Positions 6,719-40,439 of a stretch of 40,742 nt of DNA are shown piece by piece. The stretch lies in NCBI GenBank assembly GCA_001724245.1, contig MEDX01000015.1:62001-102742 (forward strand), given 5' to 3'. The stretch comes from Fonticula-like sp. SCN 57-25 (lineage: Eukaryota). The position numbers were made by a program, and so were the translations under genes. The notes under the pieces were generated by a model. That model made no database searches. It saw nothing but the letters and a program-made list of their open reading frames with translations, and was not told where the DNA came from. Within the stretch, counting starts at the first letter, position 1. The number at the start of each line of letters is the position of its first letter.

Positions 6719-6866
6719 GCTCTTTGTGTGTCGCAATACACTATTTTATCCATAAAAGGAAATTTCATGTCCACAAAAGGAAATAATTTGGAATCTAGGC
6801 CAAAAAAGGCAATCGAGTGTTGGTTGTTGTTTCTTGGGCCACACAGATCGGCTGCGCTGCGTCGTC

Positions 6867-11808: not shown

Positions 11809-12039
11809 GGAGTCAAAAAGGAGTGAAATAGAGTGAAAAAAGTGGTAAAAATGGAGTATTTTGGGGCATTTTGGCTCTAAAAGTGGTAAAAAAGGTGCAA
11901 AAAAGGTAAAAAAAGGTGCAAAAAACTGCAAATGTACAGCAGCAAATTACTATTAAAAAGTCTTTTTTCTTTTATTTTCTCTCTTTACACACAATAAAAT
12001 ATATCTTTTTCCCTTCTTTTTCCCTTTTTTTCTTCCTAT

Positions 12040-14993
12040 TCACTCCTTGATAGTCCTTGCAATAGTCCTCTTGAAATACGTATCATTCCTCATCAAATTC
12101 TCATACGTATCCACTTCCACAATCTTGCCCTCTTTCAGCACTGCAATCTTCCCAGCCCCCCTAATAGTCGACATTCTATGCGCAATGATAATCACAGTCC
12201 GCCCTACCATTAGCCTATCAAGCGCCTCTTGTACCAATCCTTCACTTTCCGCATCTAATGCACTCGTGGCTTCATCCAATATGAGTATTTTCGGGTTTTT
12301 TAATAAAGCACGTGATATAGCTATGCGCTGTTTTTGACCACCGGAAAGTGAAATTCCCCTTTCGCCAACATATGTTTCATATTTGGCGGGAAAATTGTTT
12401 ATGAATGTGGACGCATTGGCGCGATTGGCCGCATCAATGATGACGTCATCAGACACATGATCACGTGATGAGCCGTAAGCGATGTTGGATTGGATGGTGT
12501 CTGCGAATAGGACGGGTTCTTGTGAGACGAGGGCCATGTGGTCGCGGAACCAGGTGAGGTTGAGGTCGCGAATGTCGACGCCGTCAACAAGGATGTGGCC
12601 CTAGGGGAAGAATAAGGGGAAGAGTAAGTAAAGAGAAGGGAAAGAAGAAGAGAAGAGAAGAAGAGAAGAAGAGTAGAGTGATAACAAGTACAACAAGTAC
12701 AAGAGAAAGTACAAGTATAATAACAAGTACAACAAGTATGATATCATCATCAACATTGACAACAAGTACAAGTACAAGTACAATAACAGGTACAATAACA
12801 GGTACAAGTACATGTATAATATCATTGACAAGTACATGTACAAGTACAAGTAAGAGTACAAGTACAAGTGCAAGTACACGTATAGTAACAAGTAAGAGTA
12901 CAAGTACAAGTACACGTATAATAACAAGTATCATCACCATCATCAACAACAAGTAAAAGTACAATAACAAGTACAAGTACAAGTACAACATCAATATCAA
13001 CAACAAAAGTATCATCAACATCAACTACCATGTTTGATGCATTCTAGTGTCATTTTGATATCTTTCCAACATCTTTCCAACATGTTTTCAACATATTTCT
13101 TGCACTTTCCAACCACAATCACTATATCGTACCGCTTGAGGGTCGTAAAGGCGCATGAGAAGTGACCCAATAGTACTTTTGCCGCTGCCAGACTGACCAA
13201 CAATGGCCGTGATCGTTCTTTTCAAATCATCAGTCACGTGACATCAAGTCGGTTTGAAACGTACCCGGGCTCGATGGTGAGGTTGAGGTCCTTGAGGATG
13301 CCGGCGGAGGAGCGCGAGGGGTAGGCGAATTGGACATTGCGGAACTCTATGTGGCCGCGAAGCTCATCAAGGCGCTTATTGGCTGGAAATTATGAGAAAA
13401 AAGGTTGAAAAAAGGGGTAAAAATGGTCGAAAAAAGGGGTCAAAAAAGGACGAATGACCAAAAAACGACCAAAAAACGACCAAATTACCACCAAATAAAG
13501 ACCAAATAACATCCAAATAACATCCAAATAACATCCAAATAACCACATATTAACCACAATAACCAACAAATATCCTCATTCTTTTTTCGCACCTCCAATG
13601 TACACTTCCGGTACGCGATCACGCAGCTCAAACACGCGCGCCCCCGCCCCCACGCCCTTCATCAGCTCGCTGTAAAACGAGCTAATTCCGACGACAGAGC
13701 CGCCGACGTAGACCGTGTAGAGCAGAAAAGTGGAAAGGTCGCCGATGGAAATGGCGCCGGACATGACCATGCTGCCGCCGTACCAGAGGACGGCAAGCAT
13801 GCTCGCATTGCCCATGAAATTGGCCTGGAAAGAATTGCGAGGTAAGAAAAGGGCAAGAAAAAGTAGAAAAAATGAAAGTAAATGTACGTAAAATGAACGA
13901 AAGTTGTTTAAAAATGCACGAAAAAGTACCAAAAATGAACGAATTACCGCCAAAAATGCCGCCAAAATCACACAATTTCAACGTAAATCAACGTAATCCT
14001 TTATAAACACCCACAAAAACACCCAAATTTTATTTATTTCATAATTTCACGTACGAGACCGTAAAAACCACCGCTTGCGAGCGCCTCTTTCTTTGCAATT
14101 CTCAGAATTTCAAATGTCTTTTCGGCGTAGCGCTCAATTTCGGCCTCTTCGCGGCCGTTTGCGCGCACTGTCCTGATGCCCGAGATGCGCTCCTCTGCGA
14201 TCTTTGTCGTGTCCGCGAGCGCGTCCTGCGTCTGCTTGGTGAGCTTGCGCACGTAGCGTCCGTAAAAGACGCCGACGAGCGCGAGCGGCGGGACGATCGA
14301 GAGGATCGTGAGGGTGAGCGGCGGCGAGATGACCATCATGAGCGCCGAGCCGATCACCGCCTGCGACATTGTGCGAAGGCCGTCGGCGATGTTGTTTGTG
14401 AGTGTCTTGCCGACGAGCTGCGTGTCCGAGGAGAGGCGGTTGATGAGCTCGCCGGTGCGCTGCGTGTCGAAAAAGCCCATCTCTTGGCGGAGCAGCGAGG
14501 CGTAGACCTGGCGGCGGAGATCGTTCACGATGCGCTCGCCAGACATCTTCATGAGGTACGTGCGCACACCGCCTGCCACGGCGCTCATGGCAAAGGCGCC
14601 GCCGAGCACGAGCACGGTCGTTTGAACGCGCTCGGCAGAGACCGATCCGATCGTGATGTAGTCAATCACCTTGCCCATGCTGAATGGCAGCAGCATGTTC
14701 ACCGAAGTGTTGATGGACAGCAGGCCGATCGACGCAGTGAGCGACTTCCACTCGGGGCGCGCAAGGCGGAAAACCTGACGCATACTCGAAACATCAAGCT
14801 TGCCGCGAGCAGGCGCCGCATTCTCTTGCTTGTCCAACGACGTTGATGCCGTTGAAGCAGTTGCCGCAGATGCGGTCGATGCCGATGCGGCCGATTGAGA
14901 GTCGGACGAGTAGGCATAGCGGCAATACAGCGCGCCGTTCGCTACAGCGCGCGGGGCGATGCGCGCCCCTCTCGCCACGCGCAGCGACAGCAT
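12040..14993 (-). CDS. ABCB10: Mitochondrial ABC half-transporter, ABCB10/MDL1-like. Exons 14993-14055, 13824-13593, 13382-13265, 13217-13133, 12600-12040
   Basis: Arg/Ala-rich presequence, [25 protein letters not shown], Walker [10 protein letters not shown], signature LSGGQKQR, Walker [14 protein letters not shown]-loop IAHR. Confidence 0.92.
12603..13030 (+). repeat. (GAAGA)n then (ACAAGT)n repeats in ABCB10 intron 4
   Basis: acaagtacaagt arrays read directly. Confidence 0.88.
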
Positions 14994-15218: not shown

Positions 15219-17881
15219 TGGACATTGACGATGCGTCGGTCGAGGCCGGGGATAATAGTACGCCCCGGCGCCGCGGTCGGCCGCGCAGGGGCGATCCCGC
15301 TTCCCCCGCGGATGCCGCCACGCCCACGCCGAGCAAGCGTCGCATGCTGTCGCGCCGCGATGCCGGCGATGATTCCCCCGAGTATCTTGATTTCACTCCC
15401 GATTGCACCGTGATTGCCGACGGATCGCTCGCGTCGCATGTTCGCGTCCTCCTGCACTCGATCGCCCCCCACTTTCAGCTCACGCTGCAGACGCGCGAGA
15501 GCGGCGGCGAAGACGGCGGCAAGACCGAGCAGCGCCTCGTGTGCCCGATCCCCGGCTGCTCCAAAACCTTTCTCAACATTGACGGCATCATCTACCATGG
15601 CAAGACAACCGTGCATTCCGTGCTCGATGCCCTCGAGTGGGCGCATCCCGCCGACGCCCTCGCCGCTTTCACGCCCGACGCCGACCTGCCGCTCCCCGTG
15701 CGCGCCGTGTGGCGCGTCACCGCCTTTGAGAAGCAGACGCGCGACATCCCCTTCATCATCGGATTCCCAAAAAAAAAGGGCGAAAAGCGCGTCAAGACAG
15801 AGCCGATCGACACGGATGCCGTCGCATCGGGTCGCAGTAACGCGGCAATTCCCGACAGCGTGCCTCTGGCCGTGCGCACGCTCGTGCAACAGGCGGCCGC
15901 GGCAGCAGAGCCAAGTGAAATTCCATTTCCTTTGTGGCGAAGCACGCATGGCGACATCACCATCTGCCAGGCACCGCCCATTGACACTGCAGGTAAAAGT
16001 TCAGTCATTCTTGCCCATCCAGACGAGGGAATCGCTCCATATTCATTAAACATCCTTCAGGGACGCTCAGGTGCGCACAATATACACAGTTAATGTTTTC
16101 TGTTTCCTACCGTGATCATGTTGTGTGCCATGTTGCCATGTGCATGATGTGTTTTGTGTCATATTTGTGACATTTTCATGATATTTTGTGTTGTATTTGT
16201 GACACTTTTCATGATGTTTTGTGTCATATTAGTGACATTTTCATGATGTTTTGTGTCGTATTTGTGACACTTTTCTCTATATTTCCTCATATTCACCTCC
16301 ATATATTCTTACTTTCCTTAGTGTCACCGACTGAGTCTGTCCTTTTCTGCGGCCCCGACCTCCGCGCCATCTCCTTCTGCCCCTCCTCACCCTCCTCTCC
16401 CCACCACTTTCTCGCCACCACCTCCTCTTCACAAGGCACAATCCAAATATGGAACATTGGCGCACTCGACAACGACAAAAATGAAGAAAAAGCGCCATTT
16501 CTCGCAATGTCATTGGTGCATAATGAAGGTGTTTGTCATGACATCGCATGGCTTCCAATATGTGCACAAGACAACAGTGAATGTGAAGGAAATGAACTAA
16601 AGAGACTGGGAATATTGGCGGCGGTGTTTGGGAGTGGAGAGGTGAGTGTGTTTGCGGTGCCAGAGCCAGAGGGGGTGTCGAAGGCTGTCGGGAATGATCC
16701 GCCATGTACGTTGAATATGAGGAATTGAATAGGGAATTGGGAATAAATGGGGGTAATTTGTGTGTATTGTGTGTGTATTGTGTGTATATTGTGTGTGTAT
16801 TTTGTGTCAATGGGGTGTCAATTGGGTATTTGTGTTCAATTGTGTATCGTGTGTTGTGTGTCAATTGTGTAATTTTAACATGTATTTTGGTGCATTTTCA
16901 GTGCATTTTTCATTCTTTTCGCCCCTTTTTCATACATTTCACTCCCTTTCGTTCACTTTTCCTTACCTCTTTTCTCCAGGCATTCGTCTGACCCCCATGC
17001 GCTCGCTTCACTTTCCCTCTTCTCCTCTCTGCCTCTCGTGGCTCCCTTCCCCCTCTGGCGCACACCTCACCCTCGGCACATCCACCGGCGACCTCTGCGT
17101 CCTCTTTTTCCCCTTTTCTTCCCACCCTTTTTCCTCTTCTCTTTCCCTTGAAGTTGTACGCTTTTTTCCCGCGCATTTTGGCGCCATTCGCGCTGCCTCT
17201 TTATGCCCACAAAACCCTCTTTGTGCCGTCTCGTGCGGCGAAGACGGCGCCGTCCACGCGTGGGACCTGAATGACCCAGCCGCGCCGCTCGCACAGAACA
17301 GTTCCCGCAGCATTGCGGCCAGTTGCGGGTGGACGTCCAGTGAGCCACGTGCGTATTTTTGCACGGAAGGAAATGCGGTAAAATTGTTTTGGCTGCAAGA
17401 TCGCTTTAAAGAGTATGCGTCAGTGAGGGTTATTGAGCATGGGGCGACGGCGTGGGCGGCGGAGGCGTCGCCGTGCACGGGAATTGTCGCGTCGGGCGGC
17501 GCGGACGGAACGGTTTTGGTCATTCCGAATTATGCGCGAATTCAAACTGGGCGCAGAAAAATAAAGCCGTGGCGCGTTTTTCGCGTTATTTCGAGGCAAA
17601 AAGTGCAGCAAAATGGACAAGAAATGCCGCAAAATGGACAAGAAATGCAGCAAAATGGACAAGAAATGCAGCAAAATGGACAATTAACGCATGAATATGT
17701 GCTTGAAACGTCCAAAAAGGCAGAGGAATGGAATGCGCATGCGGCGGGCGGGCTGCCGAGGAGCGAAGAGGGGGTGATTAAGGTCACGTGGTGCCCGACG
17801 GGCGGGAAGGCGGGGTGGATGGCGGCGGCGACGGGGGGGGGGACAGTGCACGTGTTTAGCGTGCACGACATGAAAAAGTAG
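15218..17881 (+). CDS. GTF3C2: TFIIIC tauB WD40 subunit (GTF3C2/Tfc6-like) with AT-hook and C2H2 finger. Exons 15218-16070, 16322-16705, 16980-17881
   Basis: RRGRPRR AT-hook, CPIPGC..F....GIIYH....H, IQIWN, RLGILAAVFGSGEVSVFAVPEP (like GTF3C2 RLGLLA..DGKV..FSLPHP), WD40 repeats, and C-terminal VTWCPT..GWMAA..GG.V. Confidence 0.75.
16145..16272 (+). repeat. ~31-bp minisatellite (x about 4) in GTF3C2 intron 1
   Basis: Units of the form atatttgtgacattttcatgatgttttgtgtc. Confidence 0.8.
17604..17683 (+). repeat. Coding 21-bp tandem repeat (QQNGQEM x about 4) in GTF3C2
   Basis: tgcagcaaaatggacaagaaa units. Confidence 0.92.
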
Positions 17882-18288
17882 TGAAGAAATAGTGGGAAAA
17901 GTAGTGGAATAAGATAGCAAAAAGTGTGTTTGTTTAGGTTTGTTTGTGTTGGAACAGTCATATTTGTTGTAGTTTATCGGTGGTGTAACAGTTTAGCAAT
18001 AATACTGAGGCATTTGAAATCAAGTTAAAAGTCACACATATGTGAATGTAAAGTAAAAGATATGTAGCACACATGATTATGCACTGAAAGTGTCATGTAT
18101 CATATGTGAATATGGACATAAAGTGAGTCTTTTGCCATGTATCATATGTGAATATGGACAAAAAGTGTCATTCTACGCCATGTATCATATGTAAATGTAC
18201 ACAAAAAGTATCCTTTTTAACCATGTATCATATACAATGCTTCATTCTTCTTTATATTCTTCATTATTTATTATACAAATATCAAAAA

Positions 18289-20983
18289 TCACGCCAACAT
18301 TCCATCAATTGTATTGGCGAGCTGTTCCAGTCTTTTCACGCCCGACGCGCCGACCCACGCGCGGCACGTGAACGAGTCCAGTTCAGTGTTGACGCGGTCG
18401 AGAAGGGCTTCAAGTTGGGGGCGGGCGAGGGGCTCAAGTCGCTCAGGTTCAATTTCAATCATGGCTGAAAAGAAAAGGAAAATGGTAAGAAAATTGATAG
18501 AGAAAAGGGGTGAAAAAATAGAAAAATTGATTAAAAAAGAGACGTAAAAAAGATAAAATTTGATATAAAAAGAGACGCAAAAAGAGTTGGAATTTTATAT
18601 AAAAGAGACACACAACATCAGAAATTGATATAAAAAGAGACCAAAAATGCCAGAAATTAATACAATGAGACAAAAACATGTCATAACTCAATATAAAAAG
18701 ACACAAATAAAGTCATAAATATATCTATGGCCACGTACACTTTACGTAGAGCTTTCTGAGCATGCGATTGGCCTGTCGGGTTTTATCGCGAAGCCACGCG
18801 ACAAAGTTTGGCGAGCGAAGGAAGCGGTGATACAGTTCGATAATATTGCTCTTGAAGCGCGTCTTGAGCTCGGCGGCATCTGAAAAAGTGAGGAAAAGTG
18901 AGGAAAAAGTGCAGAAAAAGTGAGGGAAAGTGCGGAAAAAGAGTGTAAAAAGAGTGTAAAAAGAGTGTAAAAAGAGTGAAAATGAACTCAAAATGAACAC
19001 AAAAAGAACAAAAAAGATGCAAAAAAGTATAAAATAGACACAAAAAAAGTATCATTTTCTGCTTTAATGTCCACAAAAAAGTATCATTTTCTGCTTTAAT
19101 GTCCACAATAACAATATTAATTTACGTACGTTTTCCCTCGACTGTTGCCAAAAATGCGACTGCCTCGAATGGCAACAACCTCGGCAGCGGCTCAAACGCA
19201 CTCACAGCCCTATTTAACCCCCTTTTTAATACATAAATCCAATACTTTTCCCCACTTTCGTACGCCACACTTGGCACCAATGTCGAAAAATACGTCTCAA
19301 TCGGCTTCAAAAACGCATTCGTCAATTCCTGAAAGTGATTCAGCAGCAGCGCATTCGCCGAATCCTCATCGACATTCCTCTCCATCACGGCTTTTAACAG
19401 CCTCCTATCGACCGACACGTGCCTCTTGTACGCCGTCCTTAACCCAGGCACAAAGTCCAAACTTCCGCCGCCGCCCTTTTTCTTGGCCGCCGCGCCGACG
19501 CGCAGGATGTGCGGCCAGTGCTCGAATGCCTTTACGAAAAACGGGTTTGTGACGCCGAGCAAAACATTCGCGGGCGTTTTTGTGCGCGTCGTGTACTCTT
19601 TAAAGTCGGTGTCGTGGATGGTAAAGTACGGGCGAAAGTCGCCGCCGTACGCGACCGGACTAATTAAAGCGAGCGCGCCGAGAACAACGTCGGCGCACAA
19701 GGCGGGCGACGAGCTCATGACGACGATTGGCTCGGCGATCAGGGACAGTTCCCAGAATGTCCAGAGGTCGGCGAGAATGTCGCGAAAGTCGTGAAAGATG
19801 TTTGCCGCGCAGCTGCTCAGCGAAAACTGGTTTGGCGCGAGCTCAAACGACGATTTGCGCATGGCGCCAAAGCCGACGCTGCCGTTGAGGTGCGCGGGGA
19901 TGGTGTAGTAGAGCATCGAGCCGAGAAAGGGGAGCTCGAGGGGGCTCTCGGGCGTCGTCAGGGGCCAGCGGGCGATCGTGTGCGAGGCGGACTCGAGGAT
20001 GGGGTGGCCGACGTCAAAGTAGGTCGCGGCGAGCATGCGCAGGACCTGGCGAAAGAGGCCGACAAAGGGGCGCTCGGTGAGGAGGACGACGGATTTCTGA
20101 AAGTAGCCGCGGCGGATGCGGTCGTCTTTGCACTGGCGGAAAAAGACAAAGCCGTAGAGGAATTTTTGCTTGGGGGGGGAGAGAGGGTCCGCGCCGCTCG
20201 GCCAGCGGATGCGGAAGGTGTACTCGGTGTCGCCAATTGACGACGAATTCGAGTCGGCAAACGCATTAAAGCAACTAAAAAAGCAGGCCATTTTTAGCAC
20301 AAAAAGCACACTAAAAGCCCTCAAAACAATGCGCACATGTTGGACTTTTCTGATTCGGTAAAGTTGACGGGGGGAAAGACGCACTCGAGGGCCTGGCCGA
20401 GCTCGAGATCGAATGTGACGACGGCAAAGCAGTGCATCCAGCGCTGGAATCTGAGCATGTCGACGGGCGAGAGGTTTGTGGCAGAGGAGGGTACCGCGGC
20501 GGCGTCGACGTCGACGGCGACGGGGCCGACGCCGCGCGCAGCGGATGCCACGGCGGGATCGACCTCGAGCTCGAGCACCTCGTCATCGTCATCGTCGGCG
20601 GCGTCGGGGGCCGCCGTGGTCACAGCGGACGGATCGACCATGCCGCTGTCGTCGACGTCGTCAAAGTAGGACTCGTTGAGGTCGAGCTCGGCGGCCACGC
20701 CCACGATGAGATCGGAATCGTCGGCGGAGAGCTGCTCCTCCTCCTCGTCGGGATGGCTGCGCGTCGCAAGCTCGCTGCTGCGCGTTGAGGGATCGGCCAG
20801 GGGGTTCGCGGACGCGGCAAGATCGGGCAAATTGGGCGTGCTCATCACGCCGGCCACGTGCGTCACCAGCACGTCAGACGCCTCCTGGGAAGCGAAGCCG
20901 GCGCTAAAGGAATCGGGCGGGGCAAGCGACGGCATCCCGGGCGGCGCGCTGTTCAGCCGGCCAATAAACTCGCCGCCAGACAT
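18289..20983 (-). CDS. DENND6: DENN domain protein 6 (FAM116, Rab14 GEF-like). Exons 20983-20337, 20274-19264, 19209-19130, 18879-18739, 18464-18289
   Basis: CFAVVTFDLELGQALE, ICFNAFADSNS, YGFVFFRQ..RRGYFQKSVV, DFRPYFTIHD, LGVTNPFF, LYHRFLRSPNF.AW. Confidence 0.92.
19039..19108 (+). repeat. ~32-bp tandem duplication in DENND6 intron 3
   Basis: cacaaaaaa(a)gtatcattttctgctttaatgtc twice. An AAAAAGAGTGT x3 array lies nearby at about 18936-18978. Confidence 0.88.
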
Positions 20984-21349: not shown

Positions 21350-24300
21350 TTACAATGTGAGCGCCGCGCGCCCCCTTTCAGCGCTCGAAGCGTGCAGCGC
21401 GTCGGCCGTGAGGTGCCCCAGCGGCATCAAAAGATGCGTCTGCATGTGCACAAGCAGCGGACTACCGTTAATTAGCGCAATAGCAGTCATGCTTTCCGCG
21501 ACAGAAATCAGTTTCCGCGAAAGCGGCGGCCCAAACAGCGCCGCCACAGCTCGCCACAGCCCACACGACGCCTGCAACACAAGCGCGTCAACTTCGGGCG
21601 TCGAAAACGCCATCGCCGCGATATGTGCCGCGCCCGCCGGCGGTGCAACCATTGCCGGCGGCATTGCCGCGACCGGCGCGTCGTCGCGCGTCGCCTGCTG
21701 CAGCTCGGCGAGCATGGCCGAAAGTGCCGGTGCGCCCGCGAGCGCGCCCTTTAGCTGCGCATAGTGCGCGTCAAACCCGAGCGAGGCGCGCGCGTCGCGG
21801 TGCGCGTTAATTTGCCGGAACGTGTGGTCGATCGTGTGCGCAAAGAGGCAATGTACGACGCGGCGAAGCAGCGCGCCCCACTGGAATGCCGCCGCTTCCA
21901 AATCGCCGCGGCGTTCAAGGCTGCGCAGCGCGCGCGCCATTGTCGCGAAAATGACAAGAATGTGCGAGCGCGCGACGGCGGCGAGCGGGTTGGCGCACGC
22001 GCGAAAAGCGCGCAGCGCAACAAGCAATGTCGGGCAAATGGCGCGCGCCTCTGCCGCCCAGCTCGCGGCATCAATCGAGCCACTATAGGCCCGCTCGAGC
22101 GCCGCCTGCATGATGCGCAGCGCGGCAATGGCGCCGACGATGCGGTCAATGCTCTCGGTCCAGCCCGACAGCAGCCGCACAAAGAACGCGCGAAACACAA
22201 AAATGCGGAACGCGTTGATGCGCGGCGCTTCGCCCGCGTCGCGCGCCGACAGCGCCTCTGCAAACGCGTCGAGGCGCTGCTGCTCTGCCTGCCGCCGCGC
22301 CGGGTGCAGCTGCACCGAGTCAAAGTGCTTTGAGAACGTCTGCGCAATGGAGCGCCGCACGTACGCGTCGCCGTGATAGTCGAGCCGCGCAAAGCAGCGC
22401 AGCAGCGCGACAAGATTGGCCGAACGCGCCGCCGTCAGCGGCCCCGTCGCGGGCGTCGCAGTCAAAAACTCGCCAATGAGCGCCGGCAGCATCGAGTCGC
22501 TCTCATTGCGGTCATACAGCAAATCTGTACACGTAATCATGAGATGCCCGACAACGGTCGCCGCAAACGTCGAGTACTGCGCCTGCAGATTCGGCCGCAC
22601 TTCAAGCTCGCGCACGCGCTGCTGCATAAAAGCAGGAATGTGCGCAATTCGCGCGCGAAGCGCCGCCCTCGCCTGTCGCAACTGCGGCCCGCTCAGCACT
22701 CTTGCCTGCTCATTTTGCCGCGCAATTTCAACTAAGACTGCCTGTACCATTGCTGGAATCGCCGCGCGGTACTCGTCCGGGTTGGCAAGCATCGACGCAC
22801 TGCCCGAAAGAACACCCGCAAGGCACCGCAATGTCGGCAGAGCGTGCTCGCCAAACGCGAGCGCCGACGTAAACACTGGCTGAACCGACACGGCATAATC
22901 AAGGTGCGCGCTAAACCACATTTGCACCAACTCTTTATCAAACAGCTGCGCACACAGCGGCATAACATCGAGCAGCCGCGAAAAAAACCGCGGCGGCACT
23001 TGTCTGTGCTCGGGCGTGTCGCCATACTGCAGCCATGACGAATTGGGCCCATACAGCGCAAGAATATCGTCCCACTGACGCACGCCGTGCAGCACAAGCA
23101 CAGGCGCCGCCTCAGCAAGCACATTCACAGCAAGAGAAAAAACATCGCGGTCGGCGCGGTACCGCGCATGCTGCCGACCAGCAACATTCCCCGGCACGGC
23201 GGCATTCTGAACACCAATTGTGCCGCCTTCCTTTCTAAAGCGAGAATGAACAAGACCAACAAGCAGCTTGTTTAAGGCGTCTTGAAACCGCCGCGCCACC
23301 TGCGCCGCCATCCCATCATCAGAAACAGAAACAGAAACAGAAGTTGAAGTGGCGGCGCTCAGTGGAACGCCAGCCTCGAGCGCGTCCATGTCAATGTCGA
23401 GCAATGCCGCGTCGAGCGAATCCTGACTGTCGCGGTCGCTCGTCGCGTACACTTGCGGCGCGCCCTGCACTGGACTCGCTGCAGGGCGACACAGCGACAG
23501 CACCGACGACACAATATAAAGCGCAGCGCGACGCAGCGCCGCCGGAAATGTCGCGTCGGCATTGAGAAACGCCGCCGACAGCGACAAAAACGCAAGATGG
23601 TCGGCTTGCGGAACTGCGCTGCGCCGCACAATTTTCTGAACGGCGCCCAAAAGTCCGACGAGCGCGTTTTCAAGCGCGTCCTGGCGCGACTTCCATGCTT
23701 GCCGCTCGGCGGGTCCCCACGGGGCGTCTTCAGGGCGCGACGTGGCGGGCGAAATGGAGCTCGAGGCAAAGATGGCGGGCGTCACGGGGGCGAAGCGGCG
23801 ACGCTCAGCGGCCACGTAGCGGTCGGCGACGGCGGAGATTGTCGTGCAGAGGGAAGTTATGATGGTGGAGGTGGGGAGGTCGAGGGCGTCGGCGAGGTCG
23901 ATGAGGACGGCGAGAGAGTCGGCAATGATGGCTTTGCAAGTGTCGTCGGTGGAGGAAACCATATCAACAAGGCCGCAAATGCGCCTGAAACAGAGTTAGT
24001 AAGGAAAGACATCGAAAAAGTAAGGAGAAAGTAAGGAAAAGCAAGATAAAGTATGGTAAAGTAAGGATAAGTAAGGAAAACCACCAAAAAGCCACCAAAA
24101 ACTACCAAAAAAACCATCAATTGCGCACTTTAAGGTGGCCGGTGCGTTCAATGTGCGCTGTACATATGCGAGGTAGACGAGAAGTGAACAGTGTGACGTC
24201 AGCGTCCGCGTGGCTGCCACTTCGCCAGTGTACCGCACCGACGTCGGCATATGCAAATAAATACTACAAAAGCATATTAGATTCATCCTCAGCCAATCAG

Positions 24301-27300
24301 AGAACGCCGTACGCGGACAAAAGTCGACCAAATTGGCGGTTTTGGCGGATCTGTTCTGCACGATCGGCGTCGCTGACCATATCCGATCGCGGGACGAGTC
24401 GTTCCAATTGAGCGTGAACGATTCGCACAAATATAATCAATGGTGTGTCATTGTCATCGGCCGCCACAAGCTGGTCAGACGCAGTCGCAAGCTGTGAAAA
24501 GTGTTAGCAATAATGTCACAGATATGAACTTTCTTATACTTATCATCAAAAAATATCATATCTCACACAGTATCATGTATGAAAATATATCATATCTCAC
24601 ACAGTATCATGGAAAGTATCATATCATACACAGCATCATATCTATAATATCATGTCACAAAGTACACAGCATCAAATACAGTATCATATCTCACACAGTA
24701 TCATATCTCACATCATATCTATTTCCACATACAATCCCTTATATTCCCCCTTGACGTACAGTTCTAACGAATCTTGGCAAAGTCAATTCTCCCTCCTCAA
24801 ACCCCTCTGCATCCGCCCTCGCGTTCCTCATCAGCAGCCACAGCGCCGCCATCACTTCCGCCGACGGCGCCCAAATCCGCGACAGCTCCAAGCAGCACAG
24901 CATCATGTGACGTACCGCCGACACTGAACACGTGACCTCTCTTGTGCGCGCCTGCTGCAGCCACGCGAGCACAAACTCCCAGTGCTGCGGCACGTCGGCA
25001 GTCGAGTCGAGCACGTGGCCGTCAACGCCGACGCGCGCGAGCGGCGCGAGGTAGGCGATGCACGCCCACCCGTGCGCCTCTGTGTTGGCCGCGGCCACGT
25101 CCTTGTGCGCCGACGAGAGCGTCGCGGCGGCCCACTTTTGCCACGCGGGCCGGAAGAGCGCCCAAAAGGAGCCGTCGTCGCCGACAACGTCGTCTTCTAC
25201 GTGGCCGTATTTTTGGCGCGAACGGAAGGCGTCGGCGATGTGGCGGATGCCGACGACGAGCTCGCGGGGGGGGTCGTCGAGGATGGAAGCGAGGCGGCTG
25301 CCGCCGGAAAAGGTCAGCGAAAAGAGCGTCGGCTGCTCAAAGAGGAGGGCGATGACGTCATAGAGGGCGGATGCGGCTTGTGTGATTGGGTGCGCGTCGA
25401 CGAAGAGGGCGCTCGCGGCAACGTCAACGTCAATGTGCTCGCTGCCGACGCACGAGGCGGCCCAGAGGGCGGAGACGGCGCGCCAGCGGGCGGCAAGGGC
25501 GCAACGAAGAAGGGCGCGGGAACGCGACCAGGGGAGTAACGGTGACAGCAAAGACAGGAAAGAAAGTGAAGACTCGTTCAGGGCGGTACGGAAACGCAAA
25601 ACATCCAATGAGCGCAGTCGCGGTAAACGAACGCGAACAAGCTTGTCAACAGAATCAAACGCGTCGCCAATCGAAACAAGCGCGCTTTCACAAAGTGACA
25701 TGTCCTTGGCGGCATCTTGAAGCAGCACACCAACACGTGAAAACGCATCAGATAGCATCAAAACCGCGTCATCACATGGTGCTGTCGCCGCACCGGGCTC
25801 GACGTCGTCCACGGGAAAGGTGAGCAGCCGCGAAAGATCGGCAAAGGCGAATGAACTGCCGGCAAAGCTCGCGTCCGGCGGCAGCGGAGGCACAGACACG
25901 AAGCCACGTGGCTGCGGTTTCGGTGGCGGCGCCGGCTGAGCAAAAAACATTCGCTGCTCGGGGGCGGCAAAGGCGCTTTCGGGCCGCGCGTCGTCCGCGT
26001 CCGCATCGAAAAAGTCGCCGTTCCCGCCAAATCCCTCATCGGCCGCCGCGTCGCCAGCAATAGTTAAACCGCCGCCGACGCCCACGTGGAGGAACAAGGA
26101 CCGCGGGGACGCGCCGGGTCGCCCTGGCGACGGCCACTCGTCCTGCGTCGCGCCGAGCAGCCTTCCGCTGCCGCCACGTGGCGTACTGAGAAGCGACGGC
26201 AGGGGGGGCCGCGTGGATGTGCGCGCGCGCATTGCCGACCACACTCGACGTGGCGGCGTCATTGGCGAAGGCGACGCCGACGACGTGCGTGGCGCCGACG
26301 TGGCGCGCGTTCGAATCCGCCTGACAATTTGCTGAAGAACGGCCTCGAGGCGGCGTTTTTTGTGCTCGCGGTCGCTCAATGCGCGCTTTTCAGAAGGAAG
26401 AACGCTCGCGTCGGCGAACCGTTTGGGGGCGCGGCGCACAACTTTGCCGGAAACGACGCGCTTGCGACGAACAACCGTCGCGGATTCCGATCGAGGCTTG
26501 CGCGGTGCGTCATGTCTGCTCTTGTGTGGCGAGTGGGCCTCTAACCGACCCGTCGTGTGTGGCGATCTATCAACTTGCCTCGACTTTTGTGGCGATCTAT
26601 CAACGTCTTGATGCCTTGACCTTGGCGTGTCGGCCTCAAACCGACTCGACTTTAATGGTGATCGATCCGACTCTAGCCGACCCGATCTCTGCGGCGATCG
26701 GTGATGAAGGGCAGGCGAAAATGCTTGCCGCGCAGGTGATACTACGGGACGCTTGTCGTGCGGCGTGCGCGGCGTCAAATGCTCACCAGAAGCCGCCATT
26801 GGTCGTCGCATCGGCGTCATCAGGGCCGTCAGTGGCGGCAAATCGCTGCCGTCGTCGGCGTCGGCGTCGGCTTCTGCGTCAAAGTCGTCGTCTTCAATGA
26901 CGAGCGGCATGGAAGGTCGGCCGTTGCCACGCGTCGCGACGTAAGGCACTTCTCTGACGGGGCTCGGCGCGGCACTCTTGAGCGGACTTGGCGCTGCGCT
27001 CGCGACATTCGACCGAAGCGGGCTTGGCGGCACACTTCTGCGAACATCTTCTTCTTCTTCCTCTTCGTCGTCGTCGACAATGAAGCGACGCTGTGGCCTT
27101 ACAAGCGGCTCGTCGGCGTCGTCGCCGCGTCGCGCATCACCGCCGCGCGCCCTCTTTCTGTGCTCGCCGTCGTCTTCTTCGTCGCCTTCCTCGTTTGCAA
27201 TGACGCGCCGGCGTACGCTCGACACTGCTCTGCCACGTGACCGCACGGTGGAGTACCCCGGCCCGGTATCAAAGTGCGGAAAGTGCCTTCTTATTGACTC

Positions 27301-28794
27301 GTTGACGCCCTGCTCGATGCGCTGCACGTCCTCCTGCTCCCACGTGCGGCGGTAGCGCTCCTCGGACTCTTGCCCGTACGTCTCGCTCTCGTCGGCCTCG
27401 GACGGCCGCAGCTGCCGAAACTGACCGTGCTCGTCCCAGCCGTACGTCGGGTCGGCCAGAACGCCCTCGCGAAGCAGCTTGCGGTAGTGATTGCTGCACT
27501 GGTAGCCGACCTTGTGAGGGAGAGCGAGGCTGAAAATGCCCCAGGCGCTGCCAACGCGCCACCCGCTGCTCTTGAACTGGTCGTAGCGCGCCATCCAGAT
27601 CGCTTCTTCCTCCTGGGTTAGCGAGCCCATTGACTGGTGAAAGCACAGCTCGGTGAAGCGGTAGTAAAAGGCGTTCGGGTTATCGTGGCGCTGCGCCCAC
27701 GCGCGAAGCTGCGCTGTCGACCACTTGGCGACGGCAGAGTCGCAAAACTGGTCCTGGAAGCCTTTCTGGCGCGTCGCGGTGGAGGAGACGGCGCGGGCGC
27801 GCTGGCGGGCGGCGCGCTCAAGGTCGTACACGCGGCGGCCCGTCGGCGATGACGAAGGCAGCGGCTCGTCATTTAATACAAGGCGCCTGCGCGCAGAAAC
27901 GGGCGTGGCAGACTCGTCTTCAGACGACGATGAGTCGGAATACATTTCCATTTCGGCTGCTTCGGCTGCTTCGCGTGCTTGCTGCAGCGAAGTGAACAGC
28001 AGCTGCCGCTCGGATTCGCTGGCAGTGATGCGACGCGACGTTGAAAACTGGCCGTCGCGGGCGGACGACTCGCCGCTCTCGTCGATAAAGACAATGCCAT
28101 TGCAGGGCGGCGGCTCGTCAAGGCGACGGATGGAGCGCCAAAAGACACGCAAAAAGGCGGGCGGGCGGCCATTCGACGCCGCCTCGAGCCACGAGGCAGG
28201 CGCGGGCGGGTCGCTCGTCGCGGCATCGGCCGAAACAGCATCAGCGTCACTTGGTGTCGTCGAATCGCCGCCGTCGCCTTGTACGATGTCATTGGCTGCG
28301 CCATCGTCGGACGTGGTGACATCAGTTGATTCAGCCTCGGCGCCACTCAATGACGCATCATTAAAAACAGCAACATCGTCATCAGCACCGCCTAATGTCG
28401 TCGATTCGCTACTAGAAACATCTTTGGCTTGTACTATGTCGGTCGCTGCGTCATCTGCCGCGCCCACCTCAATCGTGGCACTTGAAACAGTAGCGCTCAC
28501 CGGTGGCATCCCTGGTCGCCGCGTAAACGTCGCCATGGAATAAAAGTCTATATTATCTTCTTCCTCGTCATCCTGCACTTCCGGCGTACTTGGCAGCTCA
28601 ATCCGCGATCGCCCCCGCGGCACCACCAGCCTGCCCACAACCTCGGCCCGCTCCTCTCGCCCGACCGTCGAAAGCTGTATCGTCGTCAGCTCCTTTCTCT
28701 CCCACGCTCTCCGCGCCTCGAGCATCTCTCTCTCATCGGGCACGTCGTCATCGACGCGTGGCCTGACGCCATCATCATGCACGTCGGCCTCCAT
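21350..28794 (-). CDS. ~2340-aa Mms22/Mus7-like replication-fork repair protein with an N-terminal Myb/SANT-like domain. Exons 28794-24760, 24491-24313, 24263-24129, 23984-21350
   Basis: Three frame-preserving GTRCG introns join the 1351-aa and 870-aa ORFs. The C-terminal helical region has WDDILALYGPNSSWLQYGDTPEHRQVPPRFF..LL and LVQMWF, like fungal Mus7/Mms22, plus SHCSLLVYL...ICGLVDMVSS..TC. Confidence 0.7.
24552..24722 (+). repeat. Degenerate ATCATATCTCACACAGT repeats in Mms22-like intron 1
   Basis: Recurring tatcatatctcacacagtatcat units. Confidence 0.8.
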
Positions 28795-28827
28795 CCGGCC
28801 GGCGTTTCAAACTGCGCACCAGCCTGC

Positions 28828-33274: not shown

Positions 33275-36200
33275 TCAGTGCTCCTGCGCCCTACCGCCGC
33301 CCTTATGAAACGGCCACAGCCACGCGCCCTTTTTCGGCGTGCTCACCGGCGTCTCTTCGCCAAACGACGGCGGCGCTGGCGTCGGCGACTTTGACCGTGC
33401 ACTGTCACCATCTTCAGAAACACTCAACAACGCCACTGCAGCAGCAGCAGAAGTTGCAGAAGTGGCAGAAGTTGCTGATGATGATGCTGGCGGCAGCTCG
33501 GTGGCGGTTGGCGGCATGCCCGGCAGCGACACTGGCGACCACTCGCTGCTGATGGCGGCGGCCGGGCGAGGCGCGCAGCGCGTGTGCACCATGACGCCGC
33601 AGGACTCGCAGCGGAGGTACTTGCCGCTGATGCCAAAGAGGACGCGGTGGCAGCCGCTGCAGCGTTGGGTGCCGGCGCCAATGTTGGTCTCTTGGAGGAA
33701 GCGGTGGTTTTCGCAGGGGGCAAGTACATTGCGAGCTAAAGAAAGGGTGAAAAATGGGTCAGTACATGGAAAAGAAAAGTAAAATAGAGGTGAAAAAGGG
33801 TTACAATGATATGGAATGAACAGAAAAGTGGTACAAAAACTGATATAAATAAACATGAAACACAAGTATAGACAATGTCAATGTCTACATGACCATATTT
33901 ACTTCTACATCTACATTCACATTCATGTATCATTCCATGTATCATTCCATGTATCATTCCATATACTCTTCCATATACTCTTCCATATCTATCCCATAAT
34001 ACCCATTATCTTCTTCTCTTGTCGTACCGTATAAAAAGAACTGAACGAGCTCCTGCTCCGACACACTCCCATTCTGATCCGTATCAATCAACTGAAACGG
34101 CGGCAAAAACGGAAAAAACGACGCGAGCCTCGCAAACTCATCCTTGCCCAGCGCCCTCGACTTTGTCGTATCAAACGTCCCCACAATCGCCGCCACCATT
34201 TCCGCGACACTTTTCTTGTAATCTTCCCTCGACGGCGCCGTCTGGCCAATCGCGTTGCCCCTGATGAGCGCCCGGCGGTCATCCACGGGGTAGAATGTCA
34301 GCAAAAACTTGAAAAGCGCGTCCTGCGGCGAGCACCGGACGTCGCTCAGCGACCGCCGGCGAGCGCTGACTGTGCGCCTGTGGCCCGCGTGGCGCGGCTC
34401 GCGCAACAGGGAAAGTTCATAGAGCTCGCTTTCGGTCACGACGGGGAAGAGCGTCGCGCGAAGGACTTGTAAAAGGGTCGCGTCGCGCTCGACAGAAAGG
34501 CTTTCTGATTGGAATTGGAGCGCGCGGCGGATCACGTGGGACATTTGGGAGAGGCGCTGAAAGTTGAACATGTGGGCTTCGACGCCGGGGCCTTTCCAGA
34601 GGGCGTCAGAGATGTGCGTGAGGTCGGTGAGGGTGAGGCCGAGGTACGGGATGCAAAAGTCTGGGTAAAGTGTCAGTAAAAGGACGGAAAAAGGCAGGGA
34701 AAAGGCGGGAAATTATAGCAAATATGTGCAGTTCATACCAAAAACCATAACAAAGATCATTCAAAAACATGGCACAGATCACATAATTAACATCATATGA
34801 AAGACATGTCAAGAAGCACACAGATGAAAGAGACAATGGGTGTTCGGAGGATATCGTAGAGATCATGACCAAATCAAGACAGATCATGACCATAAAAGGG
34901 CAGATCATGACCATACAAGGGCAGATCACGATCGTATCAAGCCAGATCAGAACCAACAAAAGACAAAACACGATCGATAACAGGAACCAAAACAAACGCC
35001 CTTTCACGCTTCTTCCCATTCCATTCCCGCTCTTTTTTTCCCAATAAAAACCATAAAACGCACCCCGCTGCGCATCCACGTCGCGCCTGTACTGCTCAAA
35101 ATTGTGCTCTGGCGTCAAAAAGTCGCCCAAATCACTCAGTGCGCTCTGCAGCTTCCTCGGCAGCGCGTCAAACGTCTCCTTTAGCCTATGAATGGCATTG
35201 TGCTTGAACCCGGCAAAAAATGCCATGAGCGTATTGTAATTTTTGAGCCCGCGCAGCTTTCGCGCGATTCTGATGAGCTTTCCAAAGACGAGCGCGCGCC
35301 TCTGCGTGTCCGTCTCGCTGAGAATCATTGCGACGACCCAGAACGAGATGCGGTTAAAGTGCTGAATCGAGAGGAACAGGTTGGGCGACACGACGCGGCC
35401 GTTAAAGTCGCGCGACGAGCTCACGAAAAACTCTAGCGGGCGAATGTTTCGGTAATAGTCGAATTCGAGGACGGTAAACTGCGCGGCGAGGAGGCTCGCG
35501 TCGGCAGACTGAAAGTTGACGAGCGACGGCGAGGCGGTCGTCTGAACGCGCGCGGCGGTCGTCTGCGGCAGCGTGCTAAAGGCCACTTGGCGCGACTCGG
35601 CAAGCATCGCGGCGAGCGACGGCTCGTTGGCGCGCAGCTCTTCCATAAAGGCGTCCAGCTGAAACGACACGGCTTCGTCGACAAAGTCGTTGGGCTGGCT
35701 CTCGAGCCAGTAGCGCAGCACGCGGACGGCGCGTGAGCGGAACTTGCGCAAAAGGTCGGCGTCCGCCACGAGCTCCTGCGGCGACACGTGCGACCATTGC
35801 GATAGCGGGCACCCGCCCGTCGCCATTCCGTCGCTCCCGGTGACAGAGGACGCGTACGGCGGAAGAGGCGACACGTCATCGCTTGCGGCAGTAGAGGGGG
35901 CGCCGCCGTACGACTCGACCGAGTTGCGCGACGGCGTTCGCGAGTGGCGCGCCGCGCCGCCGCTGCTCGAGAGGGCAAAGCCGTCTGCGCCGGACGCCGA
36001 GGCAGTACGGGAGTGAGAGTGCCGCGAGGAGGTGTCGCTCGCGGCGCCAAGCGATGACGCGGGGAGAGGCGTCGACGCGGCGGAAATCGAATCGGCCAAG
36101 ACAGAGGCAGAGGGGCCCTGGTAGAGGCGCGCGATGCGGATAAACAGGCTGCACGATGATACGACCCACCGGTGCACCATCAGAAAGGTGCTCGGCAGGG

Positions 36201-36597
36201 TGTACTCGTTCAGGTTACGATGCCGGCCGCGATCCTCCTCGGGAAAGTCGAGCACAATCTGGTAGAGAAGGCGGTTTACGCTCGTCGCACGGATTATGTA
36301 AGAAGCAGTGTCCTGCTGCGCGTTTCGCCTTTCTTCAAGCCAAAGATGGGGAGGCTCGCAAAGCAGCTCGCTCCAAATGTCCTCCTTTTGCGAGCGGCGC
36401 GATTCGGACAGCGTCGCATTCGACGAATCACCAGGCGTCACGCCATCATTAACCATCGGCGACGAGATGGGCGTTGCCTCCGATATCGTAAAGGAAGGGG
36501 CAGCCTTGGGCATCGGGGACACGGGCCCCGTCGGCTCGGAAATAAAGGGCTTGTCGCCGTTAATCACGATCGGCGGCGGCTTGGCCGAGCTCGCCAT
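33275..36597 (-). CDS. RasGRP/CalDAG-GEF-like Ras GEF (REM-CDC25-EF-hands-C1). Exons 36597-35064, 34660-34028, 33735-33275
   Basis: REM motifs TFLMVHRW and VLRYWLESQPNDF. CDC25 motifs FNRISFWV, LKNYNTLMAF and CIPYLGLTLTDL. EF-hand DTDQNGSVSEQE. C1 domain HRF...CSGC...CESC..VHTRC. Confidence 0.88.
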
Positions 36598-36948
36598 GGC
36601 GCGAAGATCGCAGGGCGCTCACAGGAAACAAATAGCCTATTCAACAAAATGAGGGCGGTGGCGGAAGGGGAGCGCCTTCGCCTGCTGTTTTAGCGCGCGC
36701 GCAAGAAGCGACGCGGACGATGCCTAAATTGGGAATCTATGAGGCAATCAAGTCCCTCGCGCCCAGGGTCCGTCGCCCAACTCGTTCACACGTTCGATCT
36801 CTAAGAAACGGGAAACGAACTAACGTGATTGGACGACTCAAACTAGCAAATTTAACTTTTCCACATTTATTGAACTGGCGCAAGCGGGGCGCAGATCAGC
36901 GCAGATGTCACACAAACAGATATGAAAACCACGCGGCAGCAGCACAGC

Positions 36949-37702: not shown

Positions 37703-38079
37703 GACGGCGCGCGGGGGGACGACGAGGTTCGAATGGTGGGTCAAACAAGAAAGAGAATCCCGTGTCATCGGACCAATAGGATTGCTCCATTTCCCGCTAT
37801 GCGGGGCGGGAACGCAACGGAAACGAAAACGTGCACGGAATTGCGTCTCGCCGACACGCACAAAGGAAAAAGAAGAGCATACATCGGTGTTTACGCAATA
37901 ATAGAAAAAAATGCATGAAAAAATGCATTGAAAGTGTGGCCCACTTTGCTTTTGAATAAGGAGATATTGGACAGCCTCTTCAATGAATTCCAAAATCAGT
38001 GCAATGAAATAGAATAATGCGTTGTTATAGTAATACAGCGAAAAATGATATACACGCGGTCAAATAAGCTGTCGTGCGT

Positions 38080-39150
38080 TCAGCGCTTACGACCGCCGCT
38101 CTTCTTTGACGGCGACGCGTCCACATAGTCCTCATCGTCCGAGTCGTCCCTGATCTCGACGACTTGGCGCTTACGGCGGCTCGGGCTGGCGCTCACGCTC
38201 GACGTGTCGGCTTCGTCTTCTTCTTCCTCTCCCTCTTCTTCTTCGTCGGCTTCCTCGTCAGCGGCACCTGCTTCGTTGTCGTCGCCGTCGTCGTCGCCGC
38301 TCGCCTCGCCGCTTCCGTCTTCTTCTTCTTCGTCGTCCTCCTCGTCGGCACTTTCATCTTCCTCGTCCAGCGCATATTCTAACAAAATCCTGTCAATACA
38401 TACACAAAAAAGACGCAAATGCGCACTTTTTGGCGTCGCGCGAGAGGCCCGCACAGGCCGGTCCGACTTGAAGGGCGATGGCGTCGCGTCCGTGAATTCC
38501 TCTACTTCCGAGGCGTCGGCGTCGGCGTCTATCACCTGCTGCGACTCGGCGGCGCTGTCCGTCTGGCTTAGGGACGCCGTTGATGTCGATGCCGCGGGCC
38601 TCGAAAGCTCGCTCAGGATCGACTGCTGAAAGATGCCCGCGGGGGGCGGCGCCGGCGCACCGGTCGCTTCGTCAATCCACTCGGCATCAGCAAGCACGAC
38701 GATCTCGCGGTGCACACCAAAGACGTCCATTGACCGCTCCGTGCGAGAGGATCCCGTGGCCTTGAGGCCGATCAGCGGGGAGGCCATCTTGACAGTCGTC
38801 CCAGAGAAACGCAGGGCGCCCGGCTGGTCGGGGAAGCGCACCAGCAGAGACGGCGAGCTCGTGTTAATGTCGGTGAGCTCGAACGAGGCCGTCGGCATTG
38901 ACGTGATCTGCCCAGGGAAGCAAAAGACGCGACGCGACTTGCGGGCATGCGACGATCGCGTGAGGCTCGCGCCGTGCATGACCTGCAGCGCCTTGGGGAT
39001 CGGATCCCCTTCAGTTGCAGTCACACTGCTCTCGCCCAGCACGCCAATCTCTCGCGCACGCGTGAGCACGCGCTGAAGCGTGGCCGCGCTCTTCTGCGCC
39101 GCCTGGCGGGCAGGGCTGGCGTCTACCTCCTTGCCTTTCTTGCTCGACAT
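38080..39150 (-). CDS. RHL1 (ROOT HAIRLESS1/BIN5/HYP7)-like DNA topoisomerase VI accessory subunit. Exons 39150-38427, 38378-38080
   Basis: HGASLTRSSHARKSRRVFCFPG, LTDINTSSPSLLVRFP..GALRFSGT and HREIVVLADAEWI align in order with remembered plant RHL1 motifs (HGKDIIRKSQRKNRFLFSFPG; LDRLSTKNPVLYLNFPQGRMKLFGT; FDNMIVFSESWWI). Acidic C-terminus with a basic NLS-like end. Confidence 0.72.
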   Translation of the reverse strand: MSSKKGKEVDASPARQAAQKSAATLQRVLTRAREIGVLGESSVTATEGDPIPKALQVMHGASLTRSSHARKSRRVFCFPGQITSMPTASFELTDINTSSPSLLVRFPDQPGALRFSGTTVKMASPLIGLKATGSSRTERSMDVFGVHREIVVLADAEWIDEATGAPAPPPAGIFQQSILSELSRPAASTSTASLSQTDSAAESQQVIDADADASEVEEFTDATPSPFKSDRPVRASRATPKSAHLRLFCVCIDRILLEYALDEEDESADEEDDEEEEDGSGEASGDDDGDDNEAGAADEEADEEEEGEEEEDEADTSSVSASPSRRKRQVVEIRDDSDDEDYVDASPSKKSGGRKR

Positions 39151-39161
39151 CCCTGCTGGTG

Positions 39162-39176
39162 GTTTCGCGCGCTTTT
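39162..39176 (-). promoter_or_regulatory. E2F-like element GTTTCGCGCGCTTTT, 11 nt upstream of the RHL1-like ATG
   Basis: Identical to 28828-28842 and in the same orientation relative to the gene. Confidence 0.5.
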
Positions 39177-39355
39177 ACCTCTGAATCCGGGGCTGATGTT
39201 TCAGGCACATTTCAAGGCAACGACTGCGCAACAACAGCGCTTTTCAACAGTTTTCCTTGAATAAATACAAAAGTGTCTTTGTAGTTTTGAAGTAAGCAAG
39301 CAAATTCATAACGCTTATGCATTATGCTGATACAAAAGTGCGCAACAAAGGGTGA

Positions 39356-40212
39356 TTAGTGAGAGCCTTCGGGGGTCTCGCCGGCGGGCGCCTCGGCCCC
39401 CTCGGCGGGGATGCCGGTAAAGTCGCCCTCCTTGCGGGCGCGGCCAGTCCACATGAGCAGCCGGTCCGCAACAATAACATAGTTGGGGGCGGCATAGCGG
39501 CCTTCGGTGGTGGCTGGCCGGTCGCCGACGCGCAGAGATCCGTCAACGATGACGGCCGTCCTGCAAGGCGGTCGGTCGTTAGCGCGCTGGAAATGCACCA
39601 AAAAGAAATAAAAGGCAAAAAGGGCTAAAAGAGCGTACGTCGTGTCGGCAGTCGAGAGGCGCGCGAGGACATCCTCATCGAACACGAGCACGGGGTAGTG
39701 GTTCGTCGCTATTGATGCCAGCGGCAGGGGTCAGCAGATCGTGGCAAACAGGGTGAAAGGCAAGAATAAACGCACTGAAGCGGCCGGTGGGGAGGCGAGC
39801 GCGCACGCCAACGGTGATGCGAGCGTACTTGCGGTTGTTGGGGCTCGTGGCAACGAACGGCTTGCGGGTGAGGTAGCCGCTCAGCTGGACATGCGCAAAG
39901 GTCGGGGCTGATAAAATGCGGCCAAAAAGGTTAGAGGTCGTGCTTCAATGTGTAACGTCAAGGCGCACGGTTCGAGGGGATCGTGAACGAGCGAGGGGCG
40001 CGCTCGCCATCGTGCTGAGCGGCTTCGCCCTCAGCTGGCTCCTCGGCTACAAACAAACGGTCAGTGATTGGCGGCGATTTGGGGCGGCCAAGCGAGGTCA
40101 CGCAACTGGTTTCGGTCGAGAAGTGGCGTGCGGACGACGCGGCAACAGTGCTGCGCACGGTGGCGGCGGAGAGAGCGCGGGAGCCCAGGCGGGCGGCCTG
40201 CTGGAGCATCAT
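39356..40212 (-). CDS. Mitochondrion-targeted SSB-type OB-fold protein (divergent RIM1/SSBP1/OSB-like). Exons 40212-40107, 40046-39969, 39907-39776, 39708-39639, 39560-39356
   Basis: Presequence ending ARHFST. Spliced core HVQLSGYLTRKPFVATSPNNRKYARITVGV...TNHYPVLVFDE...AVIVDGSLRV...EG...YVIVADRL follows the SSB beta-strand pattern. Confidence 0.65.
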
Positions 40213-40439
40213 CGTCTTGGGATAGGAGGCAGAGCAATGTGGGTCGGTTTGGGTCCGTCTCGGTCCGTCTCAGATCACCCTTTCTGGCGCCTTTCTGGCA
40301 CCATTCAGGACATCATGGCAAAGTGTTTTTCGAGTTTTGAGGTTTAACAACTTCTTTTGCGTTTGAAATGATGGTATGCACACTACTTTATCATTTCTTT
40401 ACTCTTCTATGGTTTTACTTAACCTTTTCTCTTCAAAGC

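Follow-up and report, generated by a model that had tools for sequence, protein, structure and literature searches.

The minus-strand gene that ends with a stop codon at 38080-38082 of the window (the whole stretch of DNA that was analysed, 40,742 nucleotides) likely codes for a rapidly evolving RHL1 (HYP7) orthologue. RHL1 is an accessory subunit of topoisomerase VI in eukaryotes, and we read the host as a non-plant protist, uncultured and with introns; the topoisomerase VI context is an assumed part of this reading. As judged from its sequence, the gene is a new, unusually divergent member of the known RHL1 family.

Structure of the Gene and Its Product

The open reading frame of the RHL1-like gene extends over 38080..39174 of the minus strand, with the first in-frame ATG at 39150. 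Translation of the minus strand from 39150 to 38083 yields an open frame of 356 residues (P0001) in which the candidate intron is read through, whereas the spliced product consists of 340 residues. The features found along the gene are the following.

38427..39150, minus strand: exon 1, codons 1-241 and the first base of codon 242; from the translation and the donor position
39046..39114, minus strand: N-terminal helix preceding the core (residues 13-35), modelled by AlphaFold2 as helix 13-35 with pLDDT ~88-89 and aligned with the 'RLR.RA' helix of the family
38656..38988, minus strand: conserved, beta-rich RHL1 core (~residues 55-165) that holds the four blocks; from hhalign, BLASTP (residues 70-159), AlphaFold2 and the structural neighbours
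38911-38976, minus strand: block HG..LTR...RKSRRVFCFPG, residues 59-80
38830-38877, minus strand: block LTDINTSSPSLLVRFP, residues 92-107
38797-38820, minus strand: block GALRFSGT, residues 111-118
38674-38706, minus strand: block EIVVLADAEWI, residues 149-159
38379..38426, minus strand: candidate intron of 48 nt, phase 1, GTGCGC...TTAG, in frame and stop-free; the reading frame is open unspliced too
38083..38378, minus strand: exon 2, which completes the basic motif and then encodes the acidic tail and the basic patches at the C terminus; stop codon at 38080-38082
38370..38460, minus strand: first basic motif of the family (consensus P.RS.P.R..R...Y), here R.SRATPKKY, spanning the intron; from family alignment columns ~480-520 and a motif HMM
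38200..38373, minus strand: acidic low-complexity tail; from the count of D and E and a deletion in a metagenomic relative
38083..38187, minus strand: C-terminal basic patches; the basic motif recurs at residues 322-331, and residues 349-356 form an end rich in lysine and arginine

The four ordered blocks, the R.SRATPKKY motif and the acidic tail, all of which had been pointed out in the first-pass annotation, are present in the minus-strand translation, with the motif formed only upon removal of the 48-nt segment 38426..38379, which keeps the same stop codon in frame. In the family alignment, the four blocks lie on conserved columns. Since 25 homologues align over the same region, and since the blocks fall on conserved columns, they do not represent a chance pattern.

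Relationship to RHL1

A phmmer search with exon 1 (P0002) against 1.84 billion representative proteins yields 25 proteins besides the window protein at E <= 1e-3; the top match has E 5.4e-10 and 33% identity, and all 25 matches cover the same N-terminal region, roughly residues 5-230. The organisms named among these homologues are the haptophyte Diacronema lutheri, the ichthyosporean Sphaerothecum destruens, the labyrinthulid Mucochytrium quahogii (via a cluster member) and the red alga Cyanidium caldarium. A family profile made of 24 sequences, with the window protein as the first and with no plant sequence, was then searched in a collection of 5.8 billion proteins. Among the 8,000 candidates scored, only three proteins reach E <= 1e-3, namely the ichthyosporean protein, the window protein itself, and P0037 of Cryptomeria japonica (XP_057825908.2), which is matched with E 1.4e-55 and carries in NCBI the name 'DNA-binding protein RHL1 isoform X1 [Cryptomeria japonica]'. 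The ichthyosporean protein (EP00126_P009422, P0010) has an E value of 1.1e-74 with the family profile and of 7.1e-07 with the window protein.

The link made by the profile is confirmed by two direct comparisons with P0037. BLASTP of the window protein gives E 3e-10, with 32 of 94 positions identical (residues 70-159), and hhalign of the non-plant profile gives a probability of 99.9% and E 4.3e-34 over 160 columns. Because both confirm the profile link, homology of the window protein to RHL1 is well supported, on sequence evidence, over about residues 13-180. Thus the RHL1-like identity proposed in the first-pass annotation is borne out by all three values, and the profile comparison with plant RHL1 that it had named, here made with hhalign, agrees with it. 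Three other searches are uninformative: a Pfam-A scan assigns no family to the window protein or to 13 homologues (PF30943 is absent from the Pfam set scanned), a PDB sequence search with the window protein returns only a chance-level match to BAG1 (E 1.5), and a word-indexed search with the core sequence returns only the window protein itself.

The order of elements in the window protein is that of plant RHL1/HYP7, as represented by P0037: an N-terminal helix is followed by a beta-rich core of ~110 residues, a basic motif of the P.R..R...Y type and a charged low-complexity tail. The core landmarks FPG, P..L, G.L.F.G and W.G are common to both proteins, and they belong to a similar length class, with 340 residues in the spliced window protein and 377-503 residues in the listed conifer RHL1 proteins. 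However, identity to the plant protein is only 34% over 94 residues, many family-conserved residues are replaced in the window protein, a three-residue insertion precedes its last strand, and its tail is much more acidic. The ichthyosporean P0010, a non-plant RHL1, has the same core as the window protein, although the two are not grouped in a tree with poorly supported branches.

In that tree (25 rows, 122 columns), good support is limited to one of the 22 inner branches, and the end branch leading to the window protein is 4.37 changes per column long, the median being 0.42. With so few supported branches and so long a branch for the window row, the tree is mute on vertical descent versus transfer. 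The near-invariant residues of the family that are replaced in the window protein lie in the stretches D-G-.-D-I-.-K, K-Y-L-F before FPG, and F-S-E-W.W.G...NP. By alignment and branch length, the window protein is by far the most divergent member of the family.

Predicted Fold of the Core

The AlphaFold2 model, calculated with the 25-row alignment, has a mean pLDDT of 67.5. Its confident parts are the helix 13-35 and seven strands located between residues 73 and 159; the strand blocks of the core mostly have pLDDT values of 77-94, and the linker and the tail are disordered. A Foldseek search of this model against the PDB gives no matches at E <= 1e-3. In an exhaustive VIA-align search of 48,161 chains, all matches lie below the noise bar (Z < 8), and a single chain reaches Z >= 5, namely 4bjj_B from the Sfc1-Sfc7 dimerisation module (Z 5.5, rmsd 6.0, 79 aligned). 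The next ones are TFIIIC tauA (6yj6_C, Z 4.7), ELL2-EAF1 (7oky_O, Z 4.5), Dcc1-Ctf8-Ctf18C (5msm_B, Z 4.4, rmsd 5.3, 83 aligned) and TFIIIC TauA (8clk_F, Z 4.4), followed at Z 3.4-3.8 by TFIIF entries, TAF1-TAF7 and an RNase H2 complex. In turn, for the Atlas's own model of P0001 the top row is a chlorophyte cluster assigned to PF30943 (TM 0.71 over 161 residues), and further rows contain clusters of ELL, Ctf8, TFIIF alpha and beta, TFIIIC_sub6, RNase H2 subunit C and TAF7. Judged in part by the titles of entries and clusters, we take these structural neighbours to form a single 'triple-barrel' class.

The structural matches, weak as they are, carry weight because they agree in kind and because the independent Atlas model gives the same picture. 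The models predict that the core forms half of a dimerisation module of the triple-barrel type. Its predicted fold is like that of Ctf8-Dcc1 as well as of TFIIF Rap30/Rap74, TFIIIC Sfc1-Sfc7, ELL-EAF, RNase H2 B/C and TAF1-TAF7; with this class there is no detectable sequence relationship, and the likeness is one of fold, and probably of pairing mode, rather than of family. The RHL1 feature of a mostly beta, Ctf8/Dcc1-like barrel half is present in the model, with seven strands and with Dcc1-Ctf8 among the best five chains, each match being weak. According to the report by Brinkmeier et al. (2022, PMC9665070), the cores of BIN4 and RHL1 resemble the Ctf8/Dcc1 barrel module, and the fold predicted here fits that likeness.

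Sequence Constraint

A close relative of the gene is found in run X2, a metagenome of another study, the contigs of which span most of 38045-39400 with an identity of ~96-97%. Among the 26 coding differences listed, 22 are located at third codon positions, and 21 are synonymous and five non-synonymous; three further differences lie beyond those listed. In the core, all six listed differences (residues 73, 84, 99, 153, 155 and 159) are synonymous. None of the five replacements falls there, as they affect linker residues 187 and 189 and acidic-tail residues 278, 289 and 300. Two of the tail positions listed, 38239 and 38285, deserve less confidence, because unrelated low-complexity contigs also match there. 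Divergence is much quicker in the 5' flank of the gene, where 124 bases contain 11 differences. The pattern of codon differences between the two relatives shows the RHL1-like gene to be under purifying selection. Runs X3 and X4 each contain one 251-base contig that is identical over 38598-38848, as well as short matches to the acidic tail. The small shares of the stretch that occur in runs X5-X13 may stem from this low-complexity tail too.

Candidate Intron, Basic Motifs, and Acidic Tail

Five AG acceptors were tried for the donor at the end of exon 1, giving segments of 37, 48, 65, 69 and 76 nt. An internal stop is avoided only with 48 or 69 nt, and among the five only the 48-nt choice creates the basic motif reported in the first-pass annotation. 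As the 48-nt segment is in frame and stop-free, the reading frame alone cannot decide whether it is spliced. Three indirect observations support its assignment as an intron. The GC content is 30% in the 40 nt that follow the donor versus 70% upstream, and further candidate short introns of the window also have donors of the form GT[AG]CG[CT] with a short AT-rich sequence behind them, including sites at the breaks of open frames in the neighbouring gene. The X2 relative carries within these 48 nt a one-nucleotide insertion behind 38389 and three substitutions (seen in a single contig with a depth of ~4); such an insertion would break a translated segment and therefore favours an intron. Additionally, a small HMM of the basic motif, built from family members other than the window protein, scores the spliced sequence at 4.8 bits and the unspliced one at 1.4 bits, both weak values. 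Among the sequencing runs listed as containing the stretch, none is an RNA data set. The candidate GTGCGC intron, the donor pattern of which is shared with other short candidate introns of the window, makes the gene look native, as the first-pass annotation had argued.

The same HMM finds two weak copies of the motif in the window protein, the first at the splice junction (4.8 bits) and the second at residues 322-331 (5.1 bits). The acidic tail that follows the first motif contains D or E at 37 of the 59 positions between residues 260 and 318 in the read-through numbering, and its short words are common to many unrelated contigs. In the X2 relative this tail has a 6-nt in-frame deletion at 38226. 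The C-terminal basic patches are probably nuclear-localisation and/or DNA-contact elements. Arabidopsis RHL1 binds DNA in vitro, as cited in PMC9665070 and PMC11302465.

Topoisomerase VI Context

Two surveys describe the distribution of RHL1 and its partners. According to Brinkmeier et al. (2022, PMC9665070), plants, SAR and some opisthokonts, choanoflagellates among them, have conserved BIN4 and RHL1, and the two occur strictly alongside TopoVI. Within Holozoa the lineages given as retaining topoisomerase VI are Ichthyosporea, Filasterea and Choanoflagellatea (Allen & Maxwell 2024, PMC11302465). Both surveys report the joint loss of RHL1, BIN4 and topoisomerase VI, and the exception noted in them is a dinoflagellate with a bacterial-type enzyme (PMC9665070 / PMC11302465). 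In Ectocarpus, the conserved cores of RHL1 and BIN4 are described as both necessary and sufficient for their interaction, and contacts of the RHL1-BIN4 pair with the transducer and C-terminal domain of TOP6B are reported from modelling and from a three-protein yeast assay with the Arabidopsis proteins (PMC9665070).

If the window protein acts as these reports describe, its core would pair with the matching core of BIN4 into a Ctf8/Dcc1-like barrel module, and this module would dock on the transducer and the C-terminal region of TOP6B. Contacts with DNA or chromatin and nuclear targeting would then come from the basic motifs and the acidic tail, and all these parts together would specialise topoisomerase VI, probably for the decatenation of replicated DNA (all steps after PMC9665070). 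Among the 25 window ORFs scanned, none matches the topoisomerase VI Pfam families at E <= 1e-3 or 1e-2.

The first-pass annotation had offered as a novelty that the accessory module is ancient and not plant-specific. That claim to novelty fails, because the surveys already report RHL1 and BIN4 together with topoisomerase VI in plants, SAR and some opisthokonts (PMC9665070, PMC11302465), and for the same reason the picture of an ancient accessory module is unchanged by the present gene. A non-plant RHL1, that of the ichthyosporean S. destruens, is also found among the homologues collected here. The value of the window gene is modest: it adds one very divergent protist RHL1 to a family with a documented spread beyond plants, and it shows which positions of the core tolerate change, which is useful for mapping the interfaces with BIN4 and TOP6B.

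Host Lineage

The genes of the window are eukaryotic and include those for alpha-tubulin, a Nckap1-like protein, ORC5, an MMS22L-like protein, a protein disulfide isomerase-like protein, an exostosin and an ABC transporter; tRNA and Rfam scans of the window give no matches, and an Atlas search with the Nckap1-like protein yields nothing of use for placing the host. The DNA is part of a metagenome assembly, and run X1, a bioreactor metagenome with a coverage of ~14.5x, contains the whole compared stretch and may be its source. Against the PDB, the alpha-tubulin scores 904-913 bits with entries that we take to be animal tubulins and ~835-838 bits with those that we take to come from Tetrahymena and Chlamydomonas. 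Among ~15 billion proteins it is a singleton at 90% identity, and therefore no close relative has been sequenced. The alpha-tubulin gene itself (5384-6718, plus strand) is intronless and encodes 444 residues, with an unusual C-terminal end that lacks the acidic, E-rich EY/EF tail.

On the minus strand at 33275-36618, RasGEF, EF-hand and C1 domains are found in three ORFs in a row, which probably belong to a single RasGRP-like gene split by introns. In the PDB, the RasGEF portion matches RasGRP1, 2 and 4 with 82, 66 and 63 bits, and SOS with 53 bits. Animals and organisms closely related to them typically have this RasGRP architecture, and the RasGRP-like gene may be a marker of holozoan affinity. 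Judged by these genes, the host does not look like a plant or an alga, and the alpha-tubulin together with the RasGRP-like gene gives a lead, short of a placement, toward Amorphea or Holozoa. Of the non-plant, opisthokont-like host proposed in the first-pass annotation, the non-plant part stands on these two genes, and the opisthokont-like part is plausible and unproven.

We can also imagine, as a placement that is conceivable if rather unlikely, that the host is a deep unsequenced lineage outside Ichthyosporea, Filasterea, Choanoflagellatea and Diaphoretickes, for example an apusomonad, a nucleariid-like organism or another member of Amorphea. If so, either the topoisomerase VI-RHL1-BIN4 module would be wider in Amorphea than the surveys found, or a divergent RHL1 would have outlived topoisomerase VI, breaking the strict co-occurrence. 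A host outside the listed phyla would also refine the history of topoisomerase VI loss on the way toward animals and fungi.

Alternative Explanations

The extreme divergence of the window protein, with its end branch of 4.37 against a median of 0.42 and its replacement of family-invariant positions, would also be expected of an RHL1-derived orphan, left behind after loss of topoisomerase VI by the host and since given another task, such as partnering in a different nuclear complex of the barrel type. We nevertheless regard such a history as unlikely, since in both surveys RHL1, BIN4 and topoisomerase VI occur strictly together and are lost jointly, and since the core is still under purifying selection, with six out of six listed core differences synonymous. 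A fast-evolving RHL1 orthologue that still serves topoisomerase VI remains the preferred reading.

Different origins of the gene also have to be weighed against a vertical RHL1 of the opisthokont type. The best single-sequence matches resemble haptophyte, labyrinthulid and red-algal members of the family, and the tree does not join the window protein to the one ichthyosporean sequence, as would be the case after horizontal transfer from an alga or a stramenopile, or if an algal contig had been mis-binned. However, the tree has no resolving power for the window row, no starred set containing the window protein; a single 12,449-base contig of run X1 spans the whole compared stretch together with the gene; the animal-like alpha-tubulin and the RasGRP-like gene lie in the same window; and the gene shares the GT[AG]CG[CT] short-intron style of that window, so that we hold transfer or mis-binning to be quite improbable. 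The identity of the family itself could be questioned on the grounds that the structural neighbours are other small triple-barrel proteins, and the gene might then encode a Ctf8, TFIIF, TFIIIC or ELL-associated subunit with an acidic tail. This we consider very improbable, because the sequence match is to RHL1 (E 4.3e-34) and no Pfam match to Ctf8, TFIIF, TFIIIC_sub6 or EAF appears even at E <= 10. RHL1 orthology is thus retained as the best explanation of the gene.

Other Genes of the Window

The gene located directly upstream of the RHL1-like gene (39356-40269, minus strand) contains at least two short candidate introns, with donors at 39968 and 39638. Its product has a presequence-like N terminus followed by a sub-threshold match to the SSB family (E 0.0045, 17.4 bits versus a cut-off of 26), and may be a mitochondrial single-strand-binding protein. 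The gene for Nckap1, a component of the SCAR/WAVE complex (6756-11278, plus strand), is split into ORFs 6756-9200 and 10466-11278; the ~76 profile positions missing between them correspond to a 1.3-kb stretch of lower GC content that probably contains several introns or small exons. Two regions of the window, 10001-14000 and 16001-20000, have a GC content of 41-49% versus 55-64% elsewhere, and coding sequence, namely the C-terminal part of Nckap1, reaches into at least one of them. Finally, on the minus strand at 21350-28806, ORFs of 881 and 1355 residues match Mus7/MMS22 and MMS22L_N, respectively, and probably belong to one very large MMS22L-like replication-stress gene.
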